64,000 nt of DNA from Oscillospiraceae bacterium (GTDB lineage Bacteria > Bacillota > Clostridia > Oscillospirales > Acutalibacteraceae). A program made the position numbers and the translations under genes. Positions 13,985-63,697 of the stretch are shown here, in pieces (within the stretch, counting starts at the first letter, position 1; each line of letters begins with the position of its first letter). Location: the NCBI GenBank assembly GCA_015065885.1, contig SVPJ01000005.1, positions 1,915 to 65,914 of the forward strand, in the 5' to 3' direction. The notes below the pieces were generated by a model. The model did no database searches. It was not told where the DNA came from and saw nothing but the letters and a program-made list of their open reading frames with translations.

Positions 13985-13997
13985 GATGTGCTACAAT
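13985..13997 (+). promoter_or_regulatory. Extended -10 promoter (TGcTACAAT) for the collagen-like gene
   Basis: GATGTGCTACAAT with TACAAT at 13992-13997. No good -35. The identical 13-mer recurs at 19874-19886. Confidence 0.45.
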
Positions 13998-14055
13998 GAA
14001 AGAGCAATGGGGGCAAGGATGCCCCGAAGAGCTTTTTTATAGGAGTGTGACAGAA

Positions 14056-18900
<4,845 letters not shown>

Positions 18901-37855: not shown

Positions 37856-38614
37856 TTACTTCTCCTTTTTGGCGCGGCGGTCTTTCAGATGCCACGGAAG
37901 ATACGCGAGGACGAACAAGAGGGTGATCACGGCAAGCATTACCAAGAGACGCAGAAGGAAGTTCGGCGGGAGAATATCCAGCACCGAGGGGGTGTCTTCG
38001 GGTTTGGCCATAAAGAGGTAGTTCGCGCCGGGGCCAAGGAGGCGGTTGGCGGCATAGGCAATGACCGCGAGTACCGCAAGTGCCCCGTACGAGCGAAAGA
38101 GCGACCGCCACGTCGGGCGCATGTTATGTACGAAGATCATATAAAAGATCGCCACGTAGCCGAGCAGATGCTCCGCCCAGAATTGGTAATACCGAAAACG
38201 GGTGGGGCCGGTGTAGGTGATAACGGTGGGGGTGAGAAGTGCAAACACCGTGCCTGAAAGCAACCAGAAATAGGAGATGTCAAACAGTGCTTGCGATTTG
38301 CTCACCACCATGTAACTGCAAAAGACGACTGCCCAGCCGCACACGGTAATGGGCAGATGATCAATAGGATTTGGCCCCAGCGACGGGATCGCGATCAATC
38401 GCCAGTAGTAGGACATTTCCGACACGATCAGCGCGAAGGCAAGTGCCCAGCGGAATTTCGGCTCGTATTTCGAGCGGGCGAGCGGGTCGCGGAAACGGTA
38501 GATCAAGAAGATCACGGCAACGCCGACCAAAATGGGCAGAAAGTGCGCGAGCGTGAAGTTTTGAAACTCCACCGTATCACCCTGCCCGAAAAAATAGCGT
38601 AAAAAGTCTTTCAT
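37856..38614 (-). CDS. YwaF/TIGR02206-family integral membrane protein
   Basis: Polytopic protein with HLPITVCGW and YQFWAEHLLGY blocks as recalled for the YwaF family. ATG at 38614 has a GAGGTG RBS. Confidence 0.55.
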   Translation of the reverse strand: MKDFLRYFFGQGDTVEFQNFTLAHFLPILVGVAVIFLIYRFRDPLARSKYEPKFRWALAFALIVSEMSYYWRLIAIPSLGPNPIDHLPITVCGWAVVFCSYMVVSKSQALFDISYFWLLSGTVFALLTPTVITYTGPTRFRYYQFWAEHLLGYVAIFYMIFVHNMRPTWRSLFRSYGALAVLAVIAYAANRLLGPGANYLFMAKPEDTPSVLDILPPNFLLRLLVMLAVITLLFVLAYLPWHLKDRRAKKEK

Positions 38615-38701
38615 AACGTAACACCTCAAAAGAAGTATACCACATTCGACAGGGTTTGACAACCGGAAAATCCGCCACCGAAAACGGTGACGGATTTCGT
38701 T

Positions 38702-40970: not shown

Positions 40971-42185
40971 ATGGTAAAAGCATGTGTGATCGGTCTTGGC
41001 TGCCGCGGTTATCAGTTGATCCGCGACGTGCTGACTAAGAATGATAATTTGGAAATCATTGCCGTGTGCGACGTGTACGAGGACCGTATCGTACAAGCGC
41101 AGGAAGAATTGGAAAAGAACGGACAAACGGCGCAGGGCTTTACGGATTATAAGGAAGCACTCGCTGTGGAGGGCTTGCAGGCGGCGTTCGTGTTTACGAA
41201 CTGGGGCACCCACACCGAGATTGCCTGCCACGCCATGCGGCAGGGCATCCCCGTGGCGAGCGAGGTGGGCAGTGAACTCTCGCTTGAGAACTGCTGGGCA
41301 CTCGTGAACACCCACGAGGAAACGGGCACGCCGTATATGCTGATGGAAAACTGCTGTTACGACAGAGCGGAAATGCTCGTCACCGCGATGGCGCGTCACG
41401 GCAAGTTCGGCACCGTCGTGCATTGTGCCGGCTCGTATTCTCACGATCTGCGGCAGGAAGTGGCATACGGTCACGTCAACCGTCACTACCGCTACGACGT
41501 GTATCGCGATCACTGTGCGGATAATTATCCCACCCACGAGTTGGGCCCCATCGCGAAGTTGCTGGACATCAACCGCGGCAACCGCATCGTGTCGGTGTCC
41601 TCCTTCGCCACCAAAGCGGTGGGACTCAAGGAGTATATCGCCACCCGCGAGGATGCGACCGACGAGATGCGTGCGGAGACCTTCCGCCAGGGCGACGTCG
41701 TGCACACCGTGCTGACCTGCGAAAACGGCGAGACGATCCTGCTGCGTCTGGACACCACCATGCCGCGCTTTTATTCCCGCGACTTTACGGTGCGCGGCAC
41801 CAAGGGGATGTATACGCAGGACACGAATATGGTGCATATGGACGGCGACCCCGAATGGGGAATCGTGCATTTTTTGAAGGACGGCTCGTTGGATAACGCG
41901 GTGAAATACGAGGACGAATTTTTGCCCGCTATCTGGAAGAATATCACCCCCGAAGCGCAGGCGGCGGGACACGGCGGCATGGACTGGTTTGTCTACAAAG
42001 CGTTTGTGGATGCGGTGCAAAACGGCACGCCGATGCCGATCGACGTGTACGACAGCGCGACGTGGCAGGCGGTGGGTGCCCTTTCGGAAAAGTCGATCGC
42101 CGAAGGCGGTGCGCCGCAGGCGATGCCCGACTTCACGCGCGGCGCGTGGAAGACCCGCCCGCGTCTGGACGTTGTGGAATATTGA
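40971..42185 (+). CDS. Gfo/Idh/MocA-fold protein, GH109-like (NAD-dependent glycosidase candidate)
   Basis: Rossmann N-terminus (KACVIGLGCRGYQL), then MLMENCCY and YPTHELGPI blocks recalled from GH109-type enzymes. Divergent from the AraC gene. Confidence 0.5.
   Translation: MVKACVIGLGCRGYQLIRDVLTKNDNLEIIAVCDVYEDRIVQAQEELEKNGQTAQGFTDYKEALAVEGLQAAFVFTNWGTHTEIACHAMRQGIPVASEVGSELSLENCWALVNTHEETGTPYMLMENCCYDRAEMLVTAMARHGKFGTVVHCAGSYSHDLRQEVAYGHVNRHYRYDVYRDHCADNYPTHELGPIAKLLDINRGNRIVSVSSFATKAVGLKEYIATREDATDEMRAETFRQGDVVHTVLTCENGETILLRLDTTMPRFYSRDFTVRGTKGMYTQDTNMVHMDGDPEWGIVHFLKDGSLDNAVKYEDEFLPAIWKNITPEAQAAGHGGMDWFVYKAFVDAVQNGTPMPIDVYDSATWQAVGALSEKSIAEGGAPQAMPDFTRGAWKTRPRLDVVEY
42159..42185 (+). 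repeat. Direct repeat copy 1 (last 8 codons plus stop of the GH109-like gene)
   Basis: CCGCGTCTGGACGTTGTGGAATATTGA encodes PRLDVVEY-stop. Confidence 0.85.
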
Positions 42186-42200
42186 TAGGGGCAGTATAGT

Positions 42201-43295
42201 ATGCGCACGATTTCCATAGAAAAAACTTTATCCGCTTTTTCGGCATTCGAAACGACGGGGACGGTCGTTGGTTGTGCCCCGTACGGTAACGGGCATATTA
42301 ACGATACCTTTTTGGTAAATTGTCAGGACATAAACGGAGAAAAGCGGTACATTCTGCAAGCCGTCAATACCAATGTCTTTAAAAAACCTACGCAGGTGAT
42401 GCACAACATACAAAAGGTGACGTCGTTTCTGCGCGAGCACACGAACGATACACGGCACGTACTGTCGCTGGTTTATGCCAAGGACGGACGTTCCCATCAC
42501 ACCGATGGAGAGGGACGTGTATGGCGTGTGTACGACTTTGTGGAAGATTCCCTTTGTCTTGAAAGTCCCGAATGCTGTGAGGATTTTTACCAATCGGCCG
42601 TGGCGTTTGGTGATTTTCAAAAAAGATTGAGCGCTTTTCCTGTGGACGAGTTGTTTGAAGTTATCCCCGATTTTCATAACACCCCCGATCGGTATTGCAA
42701 GTTTTTGCAAGCGGTGCAGGAAGACGTGTGCGGTCGTGCCGCCGACGTGCGGGAAGAAATCGCCTTTGTAAAGGCACGGGCTTCGTTTTTCAGCTTACTT
42801 GCCGATGCACACCGTGAGGGAAGATTGCCGTTGCGCGTGACGCATAACGACACCAAGATGAACAACGTTATGCTGGATAAACACACACGTTCGGCGTTGT
42901 GCGTGATTGATCTGGACACCATTATGCCCGGATTTTCGGTGAATGATTTCGGTGACTCGATCCGATTCGGTGCCTCCACTGCGGCGGAGGACGAAACCAA
43001 TCTTTCCAAGGTGTCGCTGGACATTTCGTTGTTCGAAATGTATGTGAAAGGCTTTTTAGCAGGGTGTGGCGGTATGCTGACGGCAGAAGAGATTGAGCTG
43101 CTGCCGGAAGGCGCTAAAATGATGACAATCGAGTGCGGTATGCGTTTTCTGACCGATTATCTGCAAGGAGACGTGTATTTCAAGACCAAATATGACAACC
43201 ATAATTTGGTGCGTTGTCGTACGCAGTTTAAACTGGTGGCGGATATGGAAGAAAAGTGGGCACAGCTGAAAGCAATCGTACGGAAATATCGTTGA
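42201..43295 (+). CDS. nahK: N-acetylhexosamine 1-kinase (NahK/LnpB-like, APH fold)
   Basis: YGNGHINDT, THNDTKMNNVMLD, VIDLDTIMPG, DFGDSIRFGA, MRFLTDYLQGDVYF and QFKLV blocks match NahK as recalled. Confidence 0.8.
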   Translation: MRTISIEKTLSAFSAFETTGTVVGCAPYGNGHINDTFLVNCQDINGEKRYILQAVNTNVFKKPTQVMHNIQKVTSFLREHTNDTRHVLSLVYAKDGRSHHTDGEGRVWRVYDFVEDSLCLESPECCEDFYQSAVAFGDFQKRLSAFPVDELFEVIPDFHNTPDRYCKFLQAVQEDVCGRAADVREEIAFVKARASFFSLLADAHREGRLPLRVTHNDTKMNNVMLDKHTRSALCVIDLDTIMPGFSVNDFGDSIRFGASTAAEDETNLSKVSLDISLFEMYVKGFLAGCGGMLTAEEIELLPEGAKMMTIECGMRFLTDYLQGDVYFKTKYDNHNLVRCRTQFKLVADMEEKWAQLKAIVRKYR

Positions 43296-43337: not shown

Positions 43338-43370
43338 AGCGGGAGAGAATCCGAACGATTCTCTCCCGCT
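43338..43370 (+). terminator. Hairpin after nahK (weak U-tract)
   Basis: 14-bp stem AGCGGGAGAGAATC / GATTCTCTCCCGCT followed by GTTGGTATTG. Confidence 0.45.
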
Positions 43371-43481: not shown

Positions 43482-43910
43482 TTACAGCAGAATGCCCACG
43501 AAGCCTTGGGCGGCGAGGTAAAGACCGAAGCCGTAGACGAGCGGGGCGAAGCGGGAGGCGGGAGCGCGGTGCTGCAGGGAGGTGTACACCACCGTGAGCA
43601 GCAGGAACGTGATGCCGCCGATGACGCCCGTTTTGATCGCTTCCGTCCAAAGGAGGAAACCGCCGAGCCACGGGAACAGACCGAAGCACACTGCCGCGAC
43701 CGACGCCGAGAGCAGATAGCACGGTTTGGTTTTAGGGGCGAGATAGGCGTTTGCCGTGAGGGCGACCAACGACAGGAGTGCGATGGTCGGGAGATTCAAC
43801 TGCGGCAACACGGCGTAGGGGAGAAACGCGCGGCAGACCACGCACACCGCGACGGCGATGCCCACCGTGGCGGTGAGGAGAGCGTTCAACAGAAAACGTT
43901 TGTCTTTCAT
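43482..43910 (-). CDS. Hypothetical 142-aa four-TM membrane protein (last gene of the Rnf-like operon)
   Basis: ATG at 43910 is 5 nt after the rnfG-like stop. Four hydrophobic helices; no similarity to RnfA/E that I can see. Confidence 0.6.
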   Translation of the reverse strand: MKDKRFLLNALLTATVGIAVAVCVVCRAFLPYAVLPQLNLPTIALLSLVALTANAYLAPKTKPCYLLSASVAAVCFGLFPWLGGFLLWTEAIKTGVIGGITFLLLTVVYTSLQHRAPASRFAPLVYGFGLYLAAQGFVGILL

Positions 43911-43915
43911 AGTTC

Positions 43916-44452
43916 TCAACCTCCCCACGACGTAGCGCCCGAATCCACGTCCGCACCCGTCACGAAAGCGACGGCGGCGTTGACGCTGCGGGCAACGGCT
44001 TTGGAGGTCACCGTCGCACCCGTGAGCGCGTCGATATTGTCGCCGACGGCGGCGTCTCCCTTGTTTTTCAAAAATTGGGCAAGGAATTCCCAATCGGTCA
44101 AGGCCGCGGCACCGAGGCCCACCGTTTCGTGCATTTCCAGCACCCGAAGACCCGTGACGGTGCCTTCGTTGTTCACACCGATCAACATAGTGATCTCGTC
44201 GGCGTAGCCTTGCACTGCCGTTTCGATCACAAAGCCGCTCTCACCTTTGTGTACCGAGCGGATCAGCGGGTCGTCCCCTTCATACGGTTCGACCGTGAAG
44301 GTCTCGCTGCCCGGAAGCAGTGTTTTTAAAAGGCGTTCGTGTTCCTTTTGTGCGTTGCGGTTGGCAATGCCGTTTACACCGAAGGTGAGTGCCGTGAGCA
44401 GTAACCCGATTGCCGCCACCGAAACGAGGGAGATAAGGATGGTCTTTTTCAT
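43916..44452 (-). CDS. rnfG: RnfG-like FMN-binding membrane-anchored subunit
   Basis: N-terminal TM, FMN_bind domain (ITMLIGVNNEGTVTGLRVLEMHETVGLG) and flavinylation motif DALTGATVTS. 4-nt overlap with rnfD. Confidence 0.8.
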   Translation of the reverse strand: MKKTILISLVSVAAIGLLLTALTFGVNGIANRNAQKEHERLLKTLLPGSETFTVEPYEGDDPLIRSVHKGESGFVIETAVQGYADEITMLIGVNNEGTVTGLRVLEMHETVGLGAAALTDWEFLAQFLKNKGDAAVGDNIDALTGATVTSKAVARSVNAAVAFVTGADVDSGATSWGG

Positions 44453-45387
44453 CGTGCGACCCCTCCTTTCGCCTTGCCGAAACGGCGCGGGGCGGTGTAA
44501 CGGTCGAGCAACCACGCGAGTGCGTTCATCGAAAGAATGGCGTAGGTGACCCCTTCGGGATACAGACCGTAGTAGCGGAAGAACACGGTGAGCGCACCGC
44601 AACCGATACCGTAGATCCATTGCCCTTTCGGCGTGACGGGGGAGGTGGTATAGTCGGTCGCCATAAAGAGGGCACCGAGCATCACACCGCCGCTCGTCAG
44701 TGAATACAGCATCCACATAAGAGGGGCGTCGGTCTTGTGGAACACGAGGGTCAGCAGTGCGACCGTGCCGAGATAAGCGAGCGGGATGCGAAGGGTGATG
44801 ACGCGGCGCAACACGAGATAGAGCGCGCCGAGGAGCAGTGCCAGTGCCGAGATCTCACCGATCGAGCCGGAACAGTTGCCGAGAAACATATCCCACACGC
44901 TCTCTTCCGGCAGGGCGGGCATTACCATATGGTGGAGCGGGGTCGCACCCGTGGCGGCGTCCACCCCCGTGTATACCGTCATACCGACGGGGCAGATGAG
45001 CAACATAAACGCCCGTGCCGCAAGCGCGGGATTGAACACGTTTTCGCCGAGGCCGCCGCCGAGGAGTTTTACGAAACCCACGGCAAACAGACTGCCCACC
45101 GCCGCCAGCCAATACGGAACGGTAGGGGGAAGGGTCATCGCAAGCAACAACCCCGTGACGGCGGCCGAGCCGTCGCGCACGGTGCGTTTTTTCAAGAGCA
45201 GATCGCCGACCCATTCGGTCGCGACCGCGACCGCCACGCACAAGAGGGTGACGAAAAGTCCGCGCAGTCCCAAACGCCAGATACCCACCGCGAGTGCGGG
45301 GAGCAGGGCGAGCAGCACGTCCCGCATCAGGCGGGCGGTGGAGACGGGGCTTTTGATATGCGGGGAGGAGGGCGTGGTAAGTGTCAT
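44449..45387 (-). CDS. rnfD: RnfD/NqrB-family membrane subunit
   Basis: 312-aa polytopic protein with the conserved flavinylation motif DAATGATPLH. Confidence 0.88.
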   Translation of the reverse strand: MTLTTPSSPHIKSPVSTARLMRDVLLALLPALAVGIWRLGLRGLFVTLLCVAVAVATEWVGDLLLKKRTVRDGSAAVTGLLLAMTLPPTVPYWLAAVGSLFAVGFVKLLGGGLGENVFNPALAARAFMLLICPVGMTVYTGVDAATGATPLHHMVMPALPEESVWDMFLGNCSGSIGEISALALLLGALYLVLRRVITLRIPLAYLGTVALLTLVFHKTDAPLMWMLYSLTSGGVMLGALFMATDYTTSPVTPKGQWIYGIGCGALTVFFRYYGLYPEGVTYAILSMNALAWLLDRYTAPRRFGKAKGGVAR

Positions 45388-45388
45388 A

Positions 45389-46672
45389 TCATTCTCCTCC
45401 TTTTCTTTCGGATTTTACGCGGCGGAAGGTTTCGGTCAACGGCAGGCGTGCGGGACAGATATAGGAACAACACCCACATTCGATGCAGTCGGACACGTTC
45501 AAGCGTGTGAGTTCATCGTGGTCGCCGTGATTTGCCGCGCGGTAGAGGTACAGCGGCTGAAGCAACATCGGGCAGACGGTAAGGCACCGCCCGCACCGCA
45601 GACAGTTGGTTGCCGTTTCGCTCGCCGCTTTCGGCAGACAGAGGATCGCGTTGGTGCCTTTCATCACGGGGGCGGAAAGGTCCTTCTGGGCAATCCCCAT
45701 CATCGGGCCGCCGCACATCACGCGGTCGGCACCGTCGGTGAGACCGCCCGCCGCTTCGATCAGCGCTTGCAGTGGTGTGCCGATCGGCACCATAAAGTTT
45801 TGCGGGTTTGCCACCCCTTCGCCCGAAACGGTGACGATCCGTTCGGTGAGTGGTGCCCCTTCGCTGACGGCACGGTAGATGGTTGCCGTGGTGACAACGT
45901 TAAAAACGGCACAGCCTACCGCCATCGGCAGAGCGCCCGCCGGCACTTCCCGCCCCGTGACCGCTTGGATCAACTGCTTTTCACCGCCTTGCGGGTAACG
46001 CGTCGGCAGAATGCGCAGTTCGACGGCGGGGTATTGCGGCAGCACGTCGCGCAGGGCGGCGATGGCTTCGGGTTTGTTATCCTCCACCGCGATCACAAGC
46101 GTGGTCGGCTGCAATAAGCGATGTAACAGCATCGCGCCTTCCAGCACGCTTTGCGGTGCCGTGCGCATCACGGCGTCGTCGGACGTGATATACGGCTCAC
46201 ATTCGCAGGCGTTGATAAGGACGGTATTTACTGCTTGCCGCATGGCCGACAGCGCTTTGACGTCGCTGGGAAAGGCGGCACCACCCATGCCGACGATGCC
46301 CGCTTCGCGGATACACTGCAAAACGTCGTTTTCGGTTTCGGGAAGCGGAAGGGCGACGGTGGTATTCAAACGGTCGTTTTCGATTACGACGGATAACACG
46401 GCTTTGCCGCTGAGGTGCGGGCGGGGTTCCACTGCCGTTACCGTACCCGACACCGAGGCGTGTACGGGTGAGCACAACCCCTCGCCGTCACCGATCTTTT
46501 GGCCGCGGCGAACGACGTCACCCACCGCCACGAGCGGTGTGCAAGGGGCGCCGATATGCTGCTGCATCGGAATCACGACACAGTGCGGTACGATCGTTTG
46601 CAGGGCGGCGGTTGCCGCCGACATATCTTTTTTAGGGGCGGGGTGGATACCGCCGAAAAATAAGGATCCCAT
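45389..46672 (-). CDS. rnfC: RnfC-type NAD(H)-binding iron-sulfur subunit
   Basis: IVGMGGAAFP, two ferredoxin motifs (CLRCGRCLTVCP, CIECGCCSYICP) and an SLBB-like middle region. ATG at 46672 (MGSLFFGGIHP) is preferred over the GTG at 46744. Confidence 0.88.
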   Translation of the reverse strand: MGSLFFGGIHPAPKKDMSAATAALQTIVPHCVVIPMQQHIGAPCTPLVAVGDVVRRGQKIGDGEGLCSPVHASVSGTVTAVEPRPHLSGKAVLSVVIENDRLNTTVALPLPETENDVLQCIREAGIVGMGGAAFPSDVKALSAMRQAVNTVLINACECEPYITSDDAVMRTAPQSVLEGAMLLHRLLQPTTLVIAVEDNKPEAIAALRDVLPQYPAVELRILPTRYPQGGEKQLIQAVTGREVPAGALPMAVGCAVFNVVTTATIYRAVSEGAPLTERIVTVSGEGVANPQNFMVPIGTPLQALIEAAGGLTDGADRVMCGGPMMGIAQKDLSAPVMKGTNAILCLPKAASETATNCLRCGRCLTVCPMLLQPLYLYRAANHGDHDELTRLNVSDCIECGCCSYICPARLPLTETFRRVKSERKGGE

Positions 46673-46686
46673 AGCTGTCACCTCCG

Positions 46687-47703
46687 TTAGGTGCGAAGTT
46701 TCGCTCGAAACCCCGCGGTCATGTGTTCTTCGTCGCCGATCCACAACACGTCGACGTCGCAGGCGTCCGCCAGTGCTTTGCCTTCCTCAAGAGGCAGTAA
46801 AAACAAGGCGGTGGAAAGGGCATCCGCCAGTGCGGAATCCGCCGCCACGACCGTGACGCTGTGCCAGAGTGTGGCGGGGTACTGCGTTTTCGGATCGATG
46901 ATGTGGTGATAGGGGACACCGTTCACCGTATAGGTGCGCTGGTAATCCCCACTGGTGACTACAGCACCGTCGTTTACATACAGTGTGTGGCAGTTGCGGT
47001 TGCTGTCAGCGGGGTCGGAAATGCCGATGACCCACGGCGTGCCGACCGCTTTGGGGCCTGTGGCACACACGTTGCCGCCCACGCTGATGAGCATACCGTC
47101 GGGCGCTTCACGAGCGACCCGTTCGGTCGCCCAGCCTTTCGCAACGGCACCGACATCCAGCGATGCCGAGGGATCGCGGATATATACGGTAGATGCCGCA
47201 GGGTCGATCTCCAAGGCGTCGATCGCGATATGGTCGGCGGCGGCTTTCAGTGCGTCCGCCGCGGGCAGGCGTGCGTTTTGCGGGTCGTCCGCGCCCGCGG
47301 TGCGCGCTTCGTGCCACAGACGAAGCACACGGCCCATCATCACGTTCGTCTTGCCGCCCGTTTGCGTGTAATATGCCTTGCAATCGGTCAGAAATTCCAT
47401 GATGGTACCGTCCACCGTAACGGGGGCCTTGCCCGCCTGATCGTTCACCGTTTTCAGGTTTGCGATCCCGTCGTAGGTGTGGTAGATATCAAACAGACGG
47501 TGATAGACGAGCAATGCGTCGTGTACCGTTTGCGCTTTTTCCTGAAACGCCTCCTCCGACTCGGCGGTGCCGACAACGGTGGTGACGGTGTCGAACAGGT
47601 TCAAAAAGGTGGCGGTATATTGTTTTTGTCCCTTGGCGGGTGCCGTGCGGCAACCGCCGAAACACAGTACCGCTGCGAGAAGAAATACGGCTATCCGTTT
47701 CAT
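46687..47703 (-). CDS. apbE: FAD:protein FMN transferase ApbE (lipoprotein)
   Basis: Signal peptide with lipobox (LCFGGC). ApbE blocks (NLFDTVTTV, DVGAVAKGWA, SGDYQRTYTVNGVPYHHIIDPKTQ). Start at 47703 overlaps the upstream stop by 4 nt. Confidence 0.88.
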   Translation of the reverse strand: MKRIAVFLLAAVLCFGGCRTAPAKGQKQYTATFLNLFDTVTTVVGTAESEEAFQEKAQTVHDALLVYHRLFDIYHTYDGIANLKTVNDQAGKAPVTVDGTIMEFLTDCKAYYTQTGGKTNVMMGRVLRLWHEARTAGADDPQNARLPAADALKAAADHIAIDALEIDPAASTVYIRDPSASLDVGAVAKGWATERVAREAPDGMLISVGGNVCATGPKAVGTPWVIGISDPADSNRNCHTLYVNDGAVVTSGDYQRTYTVNGVPYHHIIDPKTQYPATLWHSVTVVAADSALADALSTALFLLPLEEGKALADACDVDVLWIGDEEHMTAGFRAKLRT

Positions 47704-48779
47704 GCCGCAAACGCCTTGGCGATCAGTGCCTGGAAACCGCCCACCGCAATGGTGACCGACGAGGAAAGGTCGGAGCCGTCGGCAGGCTTGGTGCTTTCGT
47801 CCACCGCAATGCCTGCCACTTCCGCGGCGGTCTTGCCGGTGACGTAGGCGGCAAAGGCGGCGGCTTGCTCGTTCCATTCCGCTTTGGCACCGCCCCACGC
47901 GACCATACCGTACTTATCACCCAGCTCGTTCTTGGTGGGGAGGGGGGCGGAAAGGTCGGAGGTGATGGTGCCGCTCACGTCAAACGCGATCTTCGCCTGC
48001 AGGCTGTCGATCAGGCAGGAGGTGATCTTGCCGTCCTTCATCGTGACGACGGCAACGTCGGTGTCGAGCTGAGCGTTACCGTTTTGTTCCGCCGTGGCGG
48101 CGGTGGAATTTTTGAGCGAATTTAAGGTGACCAGTTTCAAGGTGTCACCGCTGTCCGCACCGCAGTGGGCGGCGTTTTTCGCCGCGGCTTCAATGGCAGC
48201 CACGTATCCGCCGAGATAGATGGTGGCGGAGGAGGCAAGATCCGACCCGTCGGGTGCCTTGCCGTGTTCGTTCACCGCACCGCTTTTGAATGCGTCCACC
48301 GTTTTGCCTTCGGCAAAGCGGCAGAGGGCGGCGACCTGCTCGTCCCATTCGGCTTTCGCACCGCCCCACGCGACCATACCGTAGTTGTCGCCCAGTTCGT
48401 TTTTGGTGGGTACAGCGGCGGTGATATCCGAGCCGAGCGAGCCGTCGGCCTTCACCGTCACCGAGGCGGGAACGGCGTCGATCACGCACGAAGCAATGAC
48501 CCCGTTCTCGTCCACCGTGACGGCGGCGATGGTGACATCAAATTTCACCTCACCGCTTTTGTCGGTGGTGGCGTTGGTGCTGTCTGCCACCGTGGTGACG
48601 ACCGCAAGGCCCGTTTTCGCCGTGCCGGAGGCGGGGGTGTTGTTGTTGGTATCGGGGGTGGGCGTGGTGCCGTTTTGCGGGCACTTGCAATCGTTTATGA
48701 CAACGGTGGTGCCACTGCACCCGCAAAGCAGGCACAGACAGAGAAGCAGAGCGAGCAGGGAAAGAACAGTGCGTTTCAT
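47700..48779 (-). CDS. Lipoprotein with two tandem FMN_bind-like domains (PplA-like flavinylation target candidate)
   Basis: Lipobox LLCGC. Two roughly 145-aa repeats share PTKNELGD(N/K)YGMVAWGGAKAEW(D/N)EQ and end with DLASSATIY and DLSSSVTIA respectively (compare DxxSGAT). Confidence 0.6.
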   Translation of the reverse strand: MKRTVLSLLALLLCLCLLCGCSGTTVVINDCKCPQNGTTPTPDTNNNTPASGTAKTGLAVVTTVADSTNATTDKSGEVKFDVTIAAVTVDENGVIASCVIDAVPASVTVKADGSLGSDITAAVPTKNELGDNYGMVAWGGAKAEWDEQVAALCRFAEGKTVDAFKSGAVNEHGKAPDGSDLASSATIYLGGYVAAIEAAAKNAAHCGADSGDTLKLVTLNSLKNSTAATAEQNGNAQLDTDVAVVTMKDGKITSCLIDSLQAKIAFDVSGTITSDLSAPLPTKNELGDKYGMVAWGGAKAEWNEQAAAFAAYVTGKTAAEVAGIAVDESTKPADGSDLSSSVTIAVGGFQALIAKAFAA

Positions 48780-48790
48780 AGTGGTTCCTC

Positions 48791-49291
48791 CTATAAACGT
48801 TGTGTAATAACGTGCAACACACCGTTACAGACCGTAGCGGTGAGAAAGCCGGTGAACAGTGCCGCAATCAGCAAAAACGGCAGATACGCCGCGACGTAGA
48901 CCGAATGCATCAGCAGCATAGCGGCGGCAATTTGCCCGACGTTGTGGGCGGCGGCACCGAGAATGCTGACGCCGTACACCGAAAGGGCGGGGCTGCGCCG
49001 CACGAGCGACATCAGCGCGAGGGCGAGCGTGCCGCCGCAAAGGGAAAACAGAAGCGCGGTCACACTGCCGCCGAACACGGCGCCCAGCAAACAACGTGGG
49101 ATCAGGACGGAAAACGCTGTCTTCGCGTCGGTGTAATACAGCACTATCAAGGTGACGATGTTGGCAAGTCCGAGTTTGATGCCCGGCAGGGGGATCAGCG
49201 GTTGCAGGGGCAAAAAGCGTTCCACGTAGGACAACACCAGTGCGAGCGACAGCATGACCGCACAAAAAGTAAGACGTTTTGTTTTGCTCAT
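48791..49291 (-). CDS. Gx transporter family membrane protein (Hpre_diP_synt_I-like)
   Basis: 166 aa, five TM helices. The LPGIKLGLANIVTLIVL and GAAAHNVGQI blocks are as recalled for this family. Confidence 0.55.
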   Translation of the reverse strand: MSKTKRLTFCAVMLSLALVLSYVERFLPLQPLIPLPGIKLGLANIVTLIVLYYTDAKTAFSVLIPRCLLGAVFGGSVTALLFSLCGGTLALALMSLVRRSPALSVYGVSILGAAAHNVGQIAAAMLLMHSVYVAAYLPFLLIAALFTGFLTATVCNGVLHVITQRL

Positions 49292-49295
49292 GCCG

Positions 49296-49661
49296 TCACC
49301 TCACCACAAAGTCCACGTCGCTCGTGTCCGCCGCAATGCGGATCTCCAGACGGTTCGGCAGGCAGACGATACTGCGGGCGGGGGTGTTGACCCACCCGCT
49401 GTGTACGCAGTCTTCGCCGGGGCAATCCGACGCGGTCACGGCAACTTTTCCGTTCCGCACGGTGACGGTGCTGTGATAGTTGCCCGTGTAGGTGATCTGC
49501 ACGTCCTCGTTCAGCGGTAGCGTGTCGATCAGTGTACCGTCAAGATACACGGCGGCATACGCCGCCTCCTCTTTCGGAAGAAAGAGGAGGAAAACGAACA
49601 GTGCCGCGAGCAGTACCGCGCCGACGACTGCGGCGTCGCCCCATTTCCATACGCGTTTCAT
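49296..49661 (-). CDS. NusG domain II-containing (DUF1312) membrane-anchored protein
   Basis: N-terminal TM, then a small beta domain with a CPGEDCVHSGW...SIVCLPNRLEIRI pattern. ATGA overlap with the pepF stop. Confidence 0.55.
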   Translation of the reverse strand: MKRVWKWGDAAVVGAVLLAALFVFLLFLPKEEAAYAAVYLDGTLIDTLPLNEDVQITYTGNYHSTVTVRNGKVAVTASDCPGEDCVHSGWVNTPARSIVCLPNRLEIRIAADTSDVDFVVR

Positions 49662-51340
49662 CCGAGCGTTTCCAGCAGTGCCAGCGCACGGCGGCTCATT
49701 TCTGCGAGTGCGCCGTCTTCAAACGGCGAGGGGATGCCCGCTTCCTTCACAAGCGCACTAAACGGCTTGGTGCCGCCCTGACGGACGAAGTGCAGATACG
49801 TATCGAACGCGCCCTGATAATCCTCCTGCGAGAGCAGCAGGAAGTGGATCGCCACCGTCTGCGCCAAGCAGTAGTCGATATAGTAGAAGGGGCTTTCGTA
49901 GATGTGCATCTGATATTGCCAGCGGGTGCCTTCCTCGAGATACGGAATGCCGTCGAAGGAGAGGTAGGGGCGATAGGTCGCTTCAAGCTTACGATACGCC
50001 GCTTTGCGTTCGGCAGGGGTCATTTCGGGATGCTCGTACACGATATGCTGATATTCGTCCACGATCACGCCGTAGGGAATGAAGGAGAGGGCGTCGAGCA
50101 GGTGCTTTTTGCGGTAGGCGTTAGCCATGTCGCCGAAAAACTGTTCGGTGTATTTCCACGCAAAGAATTCCATACTCATCGAATGGCATTCCGCCGTTTC
50201 CATCGAGCCGACATTGAGTTCCCAATCGCCGTATTGCGCGATGCAGGAGGAGGCGAGTGCGTGACCGAATTCGTGGGTGATGACGTCCACGTCACCGCTG
50301 CCGCCGTTGAAGTTTGCCAAAATGAACGGCTGGTCGTATTTCGGGAAGCAGGTGCAGTAACCGCCGCCCCACTTACCGTCACGCGACTGATAGTCGAACG
50401 CTTCCGCCTCCATCATGCGGCGCATAAACGCACCCGTGGTATCACTCATATCGTCGTACATGGTGACGGCGCGACGGAAGATCTCCTCCGCGTCCACCAC
50501 GGGCTTCGGCGTTTCGCCTGCGGCGTAGATCTGATCGTCATAAAACATCATGCGATCCCAGCCCATATCGGCGGCGATGGTCTCTTTCACCTGTTTGACG
50601 CAAGGAACCAGCGATTCCCGCACGTTTTTGCGGAAGTTTGCCACCATATCCGCATCGTAGTCGGTGCGGTCCATACGGTAGTAGCCGAGTTCGATGAAGT
50701 TTTTGTACCCCATTTTTTTCGCTTGACGGTCGCGCAGTTTGACCAGCTTGTCATAGAAGGTGTCGAGCGCTTCGGCGTGTGCGCCGAGGCCGCGGCCGAT
50801 GGCTTCGGCTGTCTTGCGGCGTACGTCGCGGTCGGCGTCCTCCAGTTTGCCGCGCAGCATCGACAGCGGCATTTCTTCGCCGTCGTAGGTGAACACCATT
50901 TCGGACATAAATTTGGAGTATTCGGTCACCAGTGCGTTTTCCTCCTGCACCTCGGCGGTGATGACGGGGGAGAAGGCACGGGTGGCGCATTCAAAACGGC
51001 GGAAGAGTTGCGTGCCGAGTTTTTCTTCCAACGCGGGGCGGAAGGGAGAGGACAGCATACGGGTGGCGTACTGCACCTGCAATTCCGAAAACAGCGGGCC
51101 GACCTCGTCGTAATACGCCATCTCACCTTGATAGTATGCGTCACGGGTGTTCAATGTAAACCGACAGTTGGCAAGCGAAGCGGCGGTGACGTATTCGCAC
51201 AAAATGTCCATAAAGATCCCGCGGGCGGCGACCACCGCATCGGCATCGGCGGCGGTGTCCATCGCCGCTTCAAAACGGGCAAATGCTTCGCGCGCTTCTT
51301 CAATGGTATAACGGGCATAGGGGAGTTCGGAAACTTTCAT
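49658..51340 (-). CDS. pepF: M3-family oligoendopeptidase F
   Basis: 560 aa with the zinc motif HEFGHA and typical PepF helical regions. AGGAGG RBS. Confidence 0.85.
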   Translation of the reverse strand: MKVSELPYARYTIEEAREAFARFEAAMDTAADADAVVAARGIFMDILCEYVTAASLANCRFTLNTRDAYYQGEMAYYDEVGPLFSELQVQYATRMLSSPFRPALEEKLGTQLFRRFECATRAFSPVITAEVQEENALVTEYSKFMSEMVFTYDGEEMPLSMLRGKLEDADRDVRRKTAEAIGRGLGAHAEALDTFYDKLVKLRDRQAKKMGYKNFIELGYYRMDRTDYDADMVANFRKNVRESLVPCVKQVKETIAADMGWDRMMFYDDQIYAAGETPKPVVDAEEIFRRAVTMYDDMSDTTGAFMRRMMEAEAFDYQSRDGKWGGGYCTCFPKYDQPFILANFNGGSGDVDVITHEFGHALASSCIAQYGDWELNVGSMETAECHSMSMEFFAWKYTEQFFGDMANAYRKKHLLDALSFIPYGVIVDEYQHIVYEHPEMTPAERKAAYRKLEATYRPYLSFDGIPYLEEGTRWQYQMHIYESPFYYIDYCLAQTVAIHFLLLSQEDYQGAFDTYLHFVRQGGTKPFSALVKEAGIPSPFEDGALAEMSRRALALLETLG

Positions 51341-63585: not shown

Positions 63586-63660
63586 ACAGTTTTACATGAC
63601 TGACGGATTTCGCAGAGCACTGCGGGGAAGTGTAAAACACAGTATGCCGACCGTCTGGGC
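63586..63660 (+). promoter_or_regulatory. ZTP riboswitch (pfl motif)
   Basis: P1 is GTTTTACA (63589-63596) / TGTAAAAC (63631-63638) and P2 is CGCAG/CTGCG. The conserved TGACTGACGG and GGGGAAG segments are present, as is the 3' element CCGTCTGGGC (63651-63660). Its CCGTC can pair with GACGG (63602-63606). Confidence 0.75.
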
Positions 63661-63697
63661 GAGATCTGTTCGAAGTGAACGGATTTCGCCCTTTTTT
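63657..63697 (+). terminator. Riboswitch expression-platform terminator
   Basis: 15-bp stem (63657-63671 / 63677-63691, two G-U pairs) followed by T6. The 5' arm overlaps the CCGTCTGGGC aptamer element. Confidence 0.75.

Follow-up and report, generated by a model that had tools for sequence, protein, structure and literature searches.

Introduction

Complexes of the Rnf/Nqr type contain two electron-transfer branches, one of which is made up of the flavin mononucleotide (FMN) of RnfG, the FMN of RnfD, a riboflavin and the cofactors of RnfC (clusters and FMN), the other of RnfB and the [2Fe-2S] site of RnfA/E (PMC12174285). Whether ions are translocated via RnfD/NqrB or via RnfA/E is a matter of debate (PMC12174285). 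In a survey published in eLife the name RNF is used only for RnfB-containing clusters and the name NQR/RNF-like only for fusions of RnfD with PF00175 (PMC8238504). Here we describe an operon of eight genes that falls outside both definitions. It is located on the minus strand (49661-43482) of a 64-kb piece of contig SVPJ01000005.1 (64,000 nucleotides, referred to as the window), which belongs to a metagenome-assembled genome (MAG) of an uncultured member of the Ruminococcaceae/Oscillospiraceae deposited in GenBank. The operon encodes RnfC, RnfD and an RnfG-like protein together with the flavin transferase ApbE, a putative flavin-carrying lipoprotein and a small membrane protein, and it probably represents an outward flavin relay which is fed by reduced nicotinamide adenine dinucleotide (NADH) and is independent of RnfA, RnfE and RnfB.

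The second described system of relevance is the extracellular electron transfer (EET) locus of Listeria, which consists of Ndh2, EetA, EetB, FmnA, FmnB/ApbE, PplA and DmkA/B. EetB is assigned to PF07456, resembles the S component of energy-coupling factor (ECF) transporters, binds flavin adenine dinucleotide (FAD) and is needed for the flavinylation of PplA in Listeria; its role in FAD export has been demonstrated (PMC9973259). The same study gives PF07009 the name EetA (Data Set S1). In its genome survey 3,328 genomes had eetB colocalised with eetA, 2,169 with apbE and 572, all of them Clostridia, with Rnf clusters defined by RnfB (PMC9973259).

Organization of the operon

The eight open reading frames (ORFs) are tightly packed and were all found at the positions given in a first-pass annotation of the window. 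From 5' to 3' they encode EetA (49296-49661), EetB (48791-49291), a lipoprotein with two repeats (47700-48779), an ApbE-family FAD:protein FMN transferase which is also a lipoprotein (46687-47703), RnfC (45389-46672), RnfD (44449-45387), an RnfG-like subunit (43916-44452) and a protein with five transmembrane helices (43482-43910; 5-TM protein). The junctions between them measure, in this order, +4, +11, -4, +14, +1, -4 and +5 nucleotides (nt), that is, short gaps and 4-nt overlaps as reported before; the start of apbE, for instance, overlaps the stop of the lipoprotein gene by 4 nt. Most of the starts are preceded by a ribosome-binding site of the GGAGG type.

Six of the eight products are supported by Pfam or NCBIfam. 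The search with hidden Markov models proposed in the first-pass annotation confirmed NusG_II for EetA (PF07009, 4e-25), PF07456 (Hpre_diP_synt_I) for EetB (5e-38), ApbE (PF02424, 9e-61), RnfC, RnfD and the FMN_bind domain of the RnfG-like protein, and the motifs that had been quoted there, GMGGAAFP and two CxxCxxCxxxCP in RnfC, TGAT in RnfD and LTGATVTS in RnfG, are present. The lipoprotein of 359 amino acids (aa) and the membrane protein of 142 aa matched no family in Pfam or NCBIfam. Both are labelled 'hypothetical protein' in GenBank, where the RnfG-like subunit is listed merely as 'FMN-binding protein'.

Eight nt past the last stop codon of the operon (43484-43482) begins a hairpin resembling an intrinsic terminator, CGGTGACAGA / TCTGTCACCG (43474-43439, minus strand), with AAAAA before and TTTTTT after it, in agreement with the terminator noted earlier at this place. 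It was read directly from the letters and is missing from the list of the hairpin scanner because its loop lies beyond the limit of that program.

Conservation and distribution of the cassette

A scan with the lipoprotein alignment, restricted to one genome per species, yielded 122 relatives from at least 122 species-level genomes, and 80 loci were kept. Their carriers are all uncultured gut Oscillospiraceae, Acutalibacteraceae, Faecousia, Lawsonibacter, Pelethomonas and relatives. For the comparison of gene order 84 loci from different species-level genomes were searched with the eight window proteins by tblastn, including flanks of 10 kb. The six-gene core lipoprotein-ApbE-RnfC-RnfD-RnfG-5TM was found in the same order in all 73 loci which offer enough contig, and the remaining 11 loci end at contig edges. 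The neighbourhood survey suggested in the first-pass annotation, for rnfCDG-only loci beside apbE, thus revealed a recurrent cassette. The same gene context surrounds the most distant 5-TM representatives as well as lipoprotein variants of greater length (514 and 624 aa). EetA and EetB were detected in 31 of the 84 loci.

Flanking genes vary from locus to locus and the contigs are unrelated. Since the same gene order recurs across species with unrelated flanks, the cassette is not a truncation; the concern raised earlier that the locus might have arisen by a recent loss from a standard operon can be rejected on the basis of this order in 84 loci (73 complete), the unrelated flanks and the lack of an RnfA/E gene in the 1.39 Mb that were searched. 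In about 19 of the 84 loci, mostly those without eetAB, the cassette is immediately preceded by genes for a histidine kinase and a response regulator of the OmpR type (e.g. locus L034, 2363-4162); the window contains none. Such two-component systems suggest a regulated, conditional expression of the cassette.

The RnfC, RnfD and RnfG-like subunits

RnfC and RnfD are members of the Rnf families. RnfC scores 498 bits against TIGR01945 (cut-off 246), is composed of RnfC_N, Complex1_51K, SLBB and Fer4 domains, and its two CxxCxxCxxxCP motifs as well as GxGGAAFP are kept in 78 of 78 orthologues. RnfD (312 aa) reaches 291 bits against TIGR01946 (cut-off 207) and contains PF03116 only (8e-111, residues 5-304). 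It matches RnfD of C. tetanomorphum over the full length (7ZC6_D, 3e-78). The flavinylation motif, DAATGAT with T149 in the window copy, is retained as D..[ST].A[ST] in 69 of 74 orthologues.

The third subunit, the RnfG-like protein, has an N-terminal transmembrane anchor and an FMN_bind domain (1e-18) with the motif DALTGAT (T147), and its score of 72 bits against TIGR01947 lies under the cut-off of 102. The best match in the Protein Data Bank (PDB) is 7ZC6_G (2.8e-18), an alignment which stops at query residue 164 and thereby ahead of a C-terminal tail. This tail carries a second motif of the ApbE type, TGADVDSGATSWGG, at the extreme C-terminus (residues 165-178, window 43916-43960, with T174). 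Of 73 orthologues 72 share the consensus TGADxxS[GS]ATSWGG, and 68 end in WGG. A third motif occurs in 22 of the 73 and precedes the canonical site; it has the form AD(A/G)(S/F)(T/S)GATG and is part of a 24-column insertion (e.g. loci L003, 9410-9988, and L004, 7562-8158). In FMN_red proteins an unstructured extension at the C-terminus has been shown to be flavinylated (PMC11334425), and the tail of the RnfG-like subunit may likewise hold a flavin on a flexible arm.

The two-domain lipoprotein

The first-pass annotation of this protein as a two-domain lipoprotein is borne out by its sequence, which is a tandem duplication with halves of 47% identity (E value 2e-42) and one motif each. In 85 sequences the lipobox L-x-G-C is kept with C21 in all and G20 in 84, and each domain possesses a D-L-x-[STA]-[STG]-[AV]-T-I motif that fits the ApbE consensus Dxx[ST]GA[ST]. 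The aspartates D180 and D337 are invariant (85/85 each). The predicted flavinylation sites are T343, present in 85 of 85, and T186, with 83 threonines and two serines. Because the protein always stands beside apbE-rnfCDG and its motif residues are invariant or nearly so, a lack of co-conservation with rnfCDG, considered earlier as an argument against its role, is contradicted. The AlphaFold2 (AF2) model shows a compact two-domain unit with a predicted local distance difference test score (pLDDT) of 79.5 and a predicted template modelling score (pTM) of 0.78.

A profile of the lipoprotein domains matches 2KZX of C. thermocellum at 4.7e-7, and DAISGATI of this fragment is aligned to the motif. 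2KZX is itself accepted by the Pfam FMN_bind model with 25.6 bits (gathering threshold 22 bits) and has been listed as an NqrC-like member of PF04205 (PMC4348036). The match and the Pfam status of 2KZX lead us to read the lipoprotein domains as divergent FMN_bind domains. Variants with apparently four (L085, 121-1995, 624 aa) and apparently three domains (L086, 1648-3192, 514 aa) exist in the same cassette, so that the number of surface flavin sites seems to vary in an otherwise constant operon.

Just past the lipobox, in a disordered linker, the window protein contains the C-x-C-P motif NDCKCP (residues 29-34, window 48680-48695). C33 is found in 74 and C31 in 60 of the 85 orthologues; the motif might serve to bind a metal or to form a disulfide.

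Predicted flavin supply and attachment

The first two genes were originally described as a NusG_II protein and a 'Gx transporter'. The pair was not recognised there as the EetA/EetB module for FAD export. EetA has one N-terminal transmembrane helix (segment 7-32), and EetB would be the ECF-S-like subunit exporting FAD. Their identity makes them a likely flavin-supply module for ApbE and strengthens the interpretation as an outward relay. The lipobox of ApbE is retained in 80 of 81 orthologues, and as the two-domain protein carries one as well, both should be located outside the cytoplasm.

The 5-TM protein and the absence of RnfA, RnfE and RnfB

The last gene had been taken for that of a 4-TM protein. 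Five hydrophobic helices are indicated both by the AF2 model (pLDDT 74.6) and by a hydropathy scan, and the loop charges fit a topology with the N-terminus inside and the C-terminus outside. It belongs to an unannotated family that is specific to the cassette. A profile search among 1.84 billion proteins retrieved 363 representatives; the 150 of these that were listed have mostly 140-148 aa. The gene follows directly after that of the RnfG-like subunit in every context examined, and in most of the 73 complete loci its product is 31-46% identical to the window copy.

It had been considered that this protein could turn out to be a divergent RnfA/E, which the searches did not show. Neither a Pfam or profile match nor six transmembrane helices nor the Cys ligands LGLCP and TNCAVLG, by which RnfA/E are recognised, are present: 25 members had no match in Pfam at E<=10, the family profile retrieved no RnfA/E or NqrD/E chain from the PDB sequences and no link to RnfA/E among the 1.84 billion proteins, and the cluster ligands are not conserved. 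No Cys column of the family is above 51% and, with His included, none is above 54%; for lack of such residues the 5-TM protein is unable to provide a [2Fe-2S] cluster or a haem with ligands.

A few weak similarities were noticed. By blastp, residues 144-191 of RsxA align with residues 102-144 of many 5-TM members. In a Foldseek search of 350,542 chains RnfA of A. vinelandii, A. woodii and C. tetanomorphum ranked first, second and fourth, NqrE ninth and NqrD 42nd, all of them non-significant (RnfA/Nqr chains with E values of 0.12-4.5 and TM-scores of about 0.35). An hhalign comparison of 213 members with an RnfA/NqrE alignment gave a local P of 7.8e-4 over 53 columns corresponding to TM5-6 of RnfA, with a probability of only 25%, as compared to P values of 0.1-0.22 in four controls. 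A remote origin from RnfA/E is possible, and in either case the ligands of the cluster are lacking. The protein was not assigned to RnfA/E, given the negative Pfam and profile searches and hints from Foldseek and hhalign that are no stronger than these.

The statement in the first-pass annotation that no ORF for RnfA, RnfE or RnfB exists at this place holds for the window. The E. coli RsxA sequence, validated against PF02508 (6e-61), served as probe in tblastn and found no match in the 64 kb at E<=10; in the 1.39 Mb of the window and the 84 loci no RnfA/E was detected either (best E value 0.8), which is a result at the level of loci. As for RnfB, RnfC is the only one among the window ORFs of at least 60 aa that has two CxxCxxCxxxC motifs. 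Across the 84 loci three unrelated ORFs resembling polyferredoxins were seen, none of them recurrent, again at locus level.

Proposed electron pathway

The cassette keeps only the C-D-G branch of Rnf and adds to it a surface flavin carrier, a flavin transferase and often an FAD exporter. According to the reading we favour, RnfC would oxidise cytoplasmic NADH via its FMN and two [4Fe-4S] clusters, and RnfD would take the electrons across the membrane by means of a covalently bound FMN and a riboflavin, the latter in analogy to Rnf. They would then reach the RnfG-like subunit on the outer face, which should carry an FMN in its domain and, probably, another on the flexible C-terminal tail, and would be passed on to the lipid-anchored protein with its two (in some relatives three or four) domains of the FMN_bind type, from which they may be handed over to some extracytoplasmic acceptor. 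ApbE is expected to attach the FMNs to the conserved threonines, and EetA/EetB, where present, to export the FAD used by ApbE. The 5-TM protein, standing in place of the ferredoxin branch, could be a structural or docking subunit and possibly a remnant of RnfA/E.

This agrees with the first-pass annotation, in which the operon was interpreted as an NADH-fed export relay and not as a ferredoxin:NAD+ pump; core synteny and the retained cofactor motifs support it. A precedent is the one-way route put forward for the two-subunit NQR/RNF-like class (PMC8238504; PMC10979944). We infer the direction of flow (from the roles of the subunits), the independence of RnfA/E/B, ion coupling and the kind of acceptor.

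Several points weigh against an outward relay of this kind. Flavinylation, complex formation and electron flow are predictions drawn from sequence. The assignment of the lipoprotein domains to FMN_bind depends on one transitive link, 2KZX, and on the motif; the Pfam FMN_bind model had no match at E<=10 in 20 single domains, hhalign of the domains against the RnfG family of the cassette gave a probability of 0.5%, and Foldseek of the two-domain model against the PDB returned IscU-like noise with a best E value of 0.15. EetA/EetB are missing from most loci. The recurrent flanking genes of the related loci comprise the two-component system only, and no reductase or acceptor gene. RnfC, RnfD and RnfG are close to the canonical subunits, and nothing in their sequences speaks against a binding of RnfA/E/B; the genomes are MAGs, and hybrid complexes with rnfA/E/B encoded elsewhere may exist.

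The main alternative is an isoform of Rnf in which RnfC, RnfD and RnfG of the cassette assemble with RnfA/E/B encoded elsewhere to form a ferredoxin:NAD+ pump, the lipoprotein being a side exit. The scores of RnfC and RnfD well above the NCBIfam cut-offs and the end-to-end match to 7ZC6 subunits speak for such a complex, and a bifurcated Rnf with a multi-flavinylated RnfG has already been proposed (PMC8238504). The 572 Clostridia genomes with eetAB-apbE beside rnf include an apbE-eetA-eetB-rnfC-rnfD cluster of Acutalibacteraceae; as clusters of this kind are common in Clostridia, related genomes probably hold a canonical Rnf. We nevertheless regard the isoform as unlikely: rnf operons are normally contiguous, yet rnfE, rnfA and rnfB are absent from the cassette at every locus; the place behind rnfG is in all cases taken by a dedicated partner with five helices; RnfG itself falls under the family cut-off and has a tail specific to the cassette; and for the mere addition of a branch, duplicating C, D and G in full would be odd.

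Somewhat less credible still is another task or direction, i.e. electrons moving inward from extracellular shuttles, a reductase for oxygen, reactive oxygen species or disulfides, or a redox sensor at the surface. Electron transfer by canonical Rnf is described as reversible (PMC12174285). The two-component systems upstream of about 19 loci speak for conditional use, and a dedicated terminal reductase is missing among the genes linked to the cassette. On the other hand, the potential of NAD+ is about -320 mV, the reduction of NAD+ from typical extracellular donors needs energy and the usual coupling partners are missing; moreover, an outward direction has been proposed for all characterised surface flavoproteins that depend on ApbE and have their NAD(P)H module in the cytoplasm. 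A decaying and functionless remnant of a canonical rnf operon, for which the loss of three of the six canonical subunits at this locus could be quoted, is hardly believable in view of intact, translationally coupled ORFs with ribosome-binding sites in identical order at 73 complete loci despite the sequence divergence of the small protein, and of cofactor motifs kept in RnfC, the RnfG tail and the lipoprotein.

An extension of the outward relay, which is bolder and which we consider doubtful, would regard RnfC-RnfD-RnfG plus a five-helix RnfA/E remnant devoid of cofactors as a free-standing enzyme that conducts electrons from NADH through four to seven covalent flavins (RnfD with one, RnfG with two or three, the lipoprotein with two to four) to the outside and translocates Na+ or H+ via RnfD. 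If this were true, widespread gut Oscillospiraceae would possess an energy-conserving extracellular respiration free of quinones and cytochromes, and the cassette would be a natural dissection of Rnf in which the RnfD branch alone is able to move ions. A natural complex consisting of RnfC, RnfD and RnfG only would permit a direct test of which Rnf branch does so.

The cassette is widespread in an important clade of the gut, with a function that is predicted. Should these fermenters export electrons from NADH, models of their redox balance, of their oxygen tolerance and of their interactions with host or dietary acceptors would have to be changed. In addition, the tail motif of RnfG and the domain family of the lipoprotein, which is invisible to Pfam, extend the list of likely ApbE substrates.

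Genomic surroundings

Upstream of eetA lies the gene of an M3-family peptidase (49658-51340, minus strand), which had been called pepF and suspected to be co-transcribed. The ATGA overlap with the first gene of the operon is real, but this linkage was not seen in the other loci inspected, and the protein matches TIGR02289 'M3_not_pepF', not oligoendopeptidase F. Because the stop codon of the peptidase overlaps the start of eetA, read-through into the operon is plausible in this genome only. An oligopeptide transporter of the ATP-binding cassette type is encoded further upstream of the peptidase. A promoter scan upstream of eetA found no convincing site, and neither the window nor three related loci showed a riboswitch or leader upstream of the operon.

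On the other side, a second hairpin with a stem of 14 bp (43338-43370), flagged on both strands by the hairpin scan, is situated about 70 nt beyond the terminator hairpin, between the operon and a convergent plus-strand gene. The convergent neighbours (40971-43295, plus strand) encode an oxidoreductase of the GH109/GFO_IDH_MocA type and an APH-family kinase, which are probably a sugar-salvage pair; in other loci they do not accompany the cassette. Directly downstream of the cassette in L001 (15463-16254), L002 and L086 (7798-8583) lies the gene of a membrane protein of the TMEM164 family (PF14808), and the window contains a copy about 5 kb off the cassette (37856-38662, minus strand). There may be a loose association between the two.

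Two further features of the window were noted. A ZMP/ZTP riboswitch (RF01750, 60 bits, gathering score 39) at 63586-63667 on the plus strand is unrelated to the operon. An ORF of 1634 aa (13996-18900, plus strand) lies in a region of strong GC/AT skew (AT skew up to 0.40) and is accompanied by repetitive antisense ORFs with LRALRTG repeats, which suggests a large, repeat-rich surface protein.

Comparison with known systems

Flavinylation-associated electron transfer across the membrane is known already. The RnfCDG-5TM-lipoprotein cassette is a variant of it for which no published description was found: the full-text literature did not yield an RnfCDG-only operon, what has been written on partial Rnf concerns the two-subunit NQR/RNF-like class or uses 'RnfCDG' as shorthand within complete complexes, and published supplementary tables of clusters contain eetAB-apbE-rnfC-rnfD layouts in Clostridia, the cassette itself not being found among them.

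With canonical Rnf (RnfCDGEAB; 7ZC6, 9ERI, 8AHX) the cassette shares the RnfC module, the flavin site of RnfD, an anchored, RnfG-like subunit of the FMN_bind type and maturation dependent on ApbE (in the cassette a prediction), and in Clostridia eetAB and apbE are often found beside the canonical operon, too. In contrast to it, RnfA/E/B are lacking in the operon and within 10 kb at 84 loci, rnfG is followed by the gene of a five-helix protein devoid of conserved Cys, RnfG has an additional C-terminal motif, and a lipoprotein predicted to carry several FMNs is encoded together with apbE upstream of rnfC. In Rnf clusters with a multi-flavinylated RnfG several covalent flavins are likewise placed in series on the outer face (PMC8238504). 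These clusters are defined by RnfB, whereas the cassette has no rnfEAB, and they gain flavins by an added domain, whereas the predicted extra site on RnfG of the cassette is a short tail motif.

The NQR/RNF-like class (PMC8238504; PMC10979944; PMC11334425) resembles the cassette in being a partial, single-branch Nqr/Rnf associated with ApbE, for which a one-way transfer from NAD(P)H to extracytosolic FMN_bind proteins has been proposed. An FMN_bind partner and ApbE are present in the cluster in both cases. However, the NAD(P)H site of that class resides in a PF00175 domain that forms one chain with the RnfD-like protein, a fusion which is absent here, where a separate Fe-S protein, RnfC, is encoded. 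The flavinylation threonine of RnfD is lost in that class and kept in the cassette (69/74), and neither a 5-TM subunit nor a two-domain lipoprotein has been described for it. NQR/RNF-like systems are found mainly in Actinobacteria and the candidate phyla radiation (CPR), the cassette in gut Oscillospirales.

FMN-bind2 proteins contain domains which were found by BLAST, not by Pfam, and occur in twos or fours (PMC11334425). By their description, i.e. domains of about 150-160 aa missed by Pfam and present in even numbers, they are similar to the lipoprotein, the domains of which (about 160 aa) are probably of this type; the three-domain variant of L086 breaks the rule of even numbers.

The EET locus of Listeria has in common with the cassette EetA and EetB, an ApbE lipoprotein, a lipoprotein with two flavin sites (here predicted) and NADH as the presumed donor. 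The lipoprotein domains differ in that they are missed by the Pfam FMN_bind model in the cassette. Genes for Ndh2 (K03885), quinone synthesis and an ECF-T protein (FmnA-like) were not encountered in the gene tables inspected or among the recurrent flanking genes, and the membrane would be crossed via RnfC-D-G and not via Ndh2 and demethylmenaquinone. Beside Ndh2 with quinone, haem proteins and the two-subunit system with its fusion of RnfD to an NAD-binding domain, the cassette, with the whole NADH-side half of Rnf and without any need for quinones or cytochromes, would provide a further route by which electrons cross the membrane.

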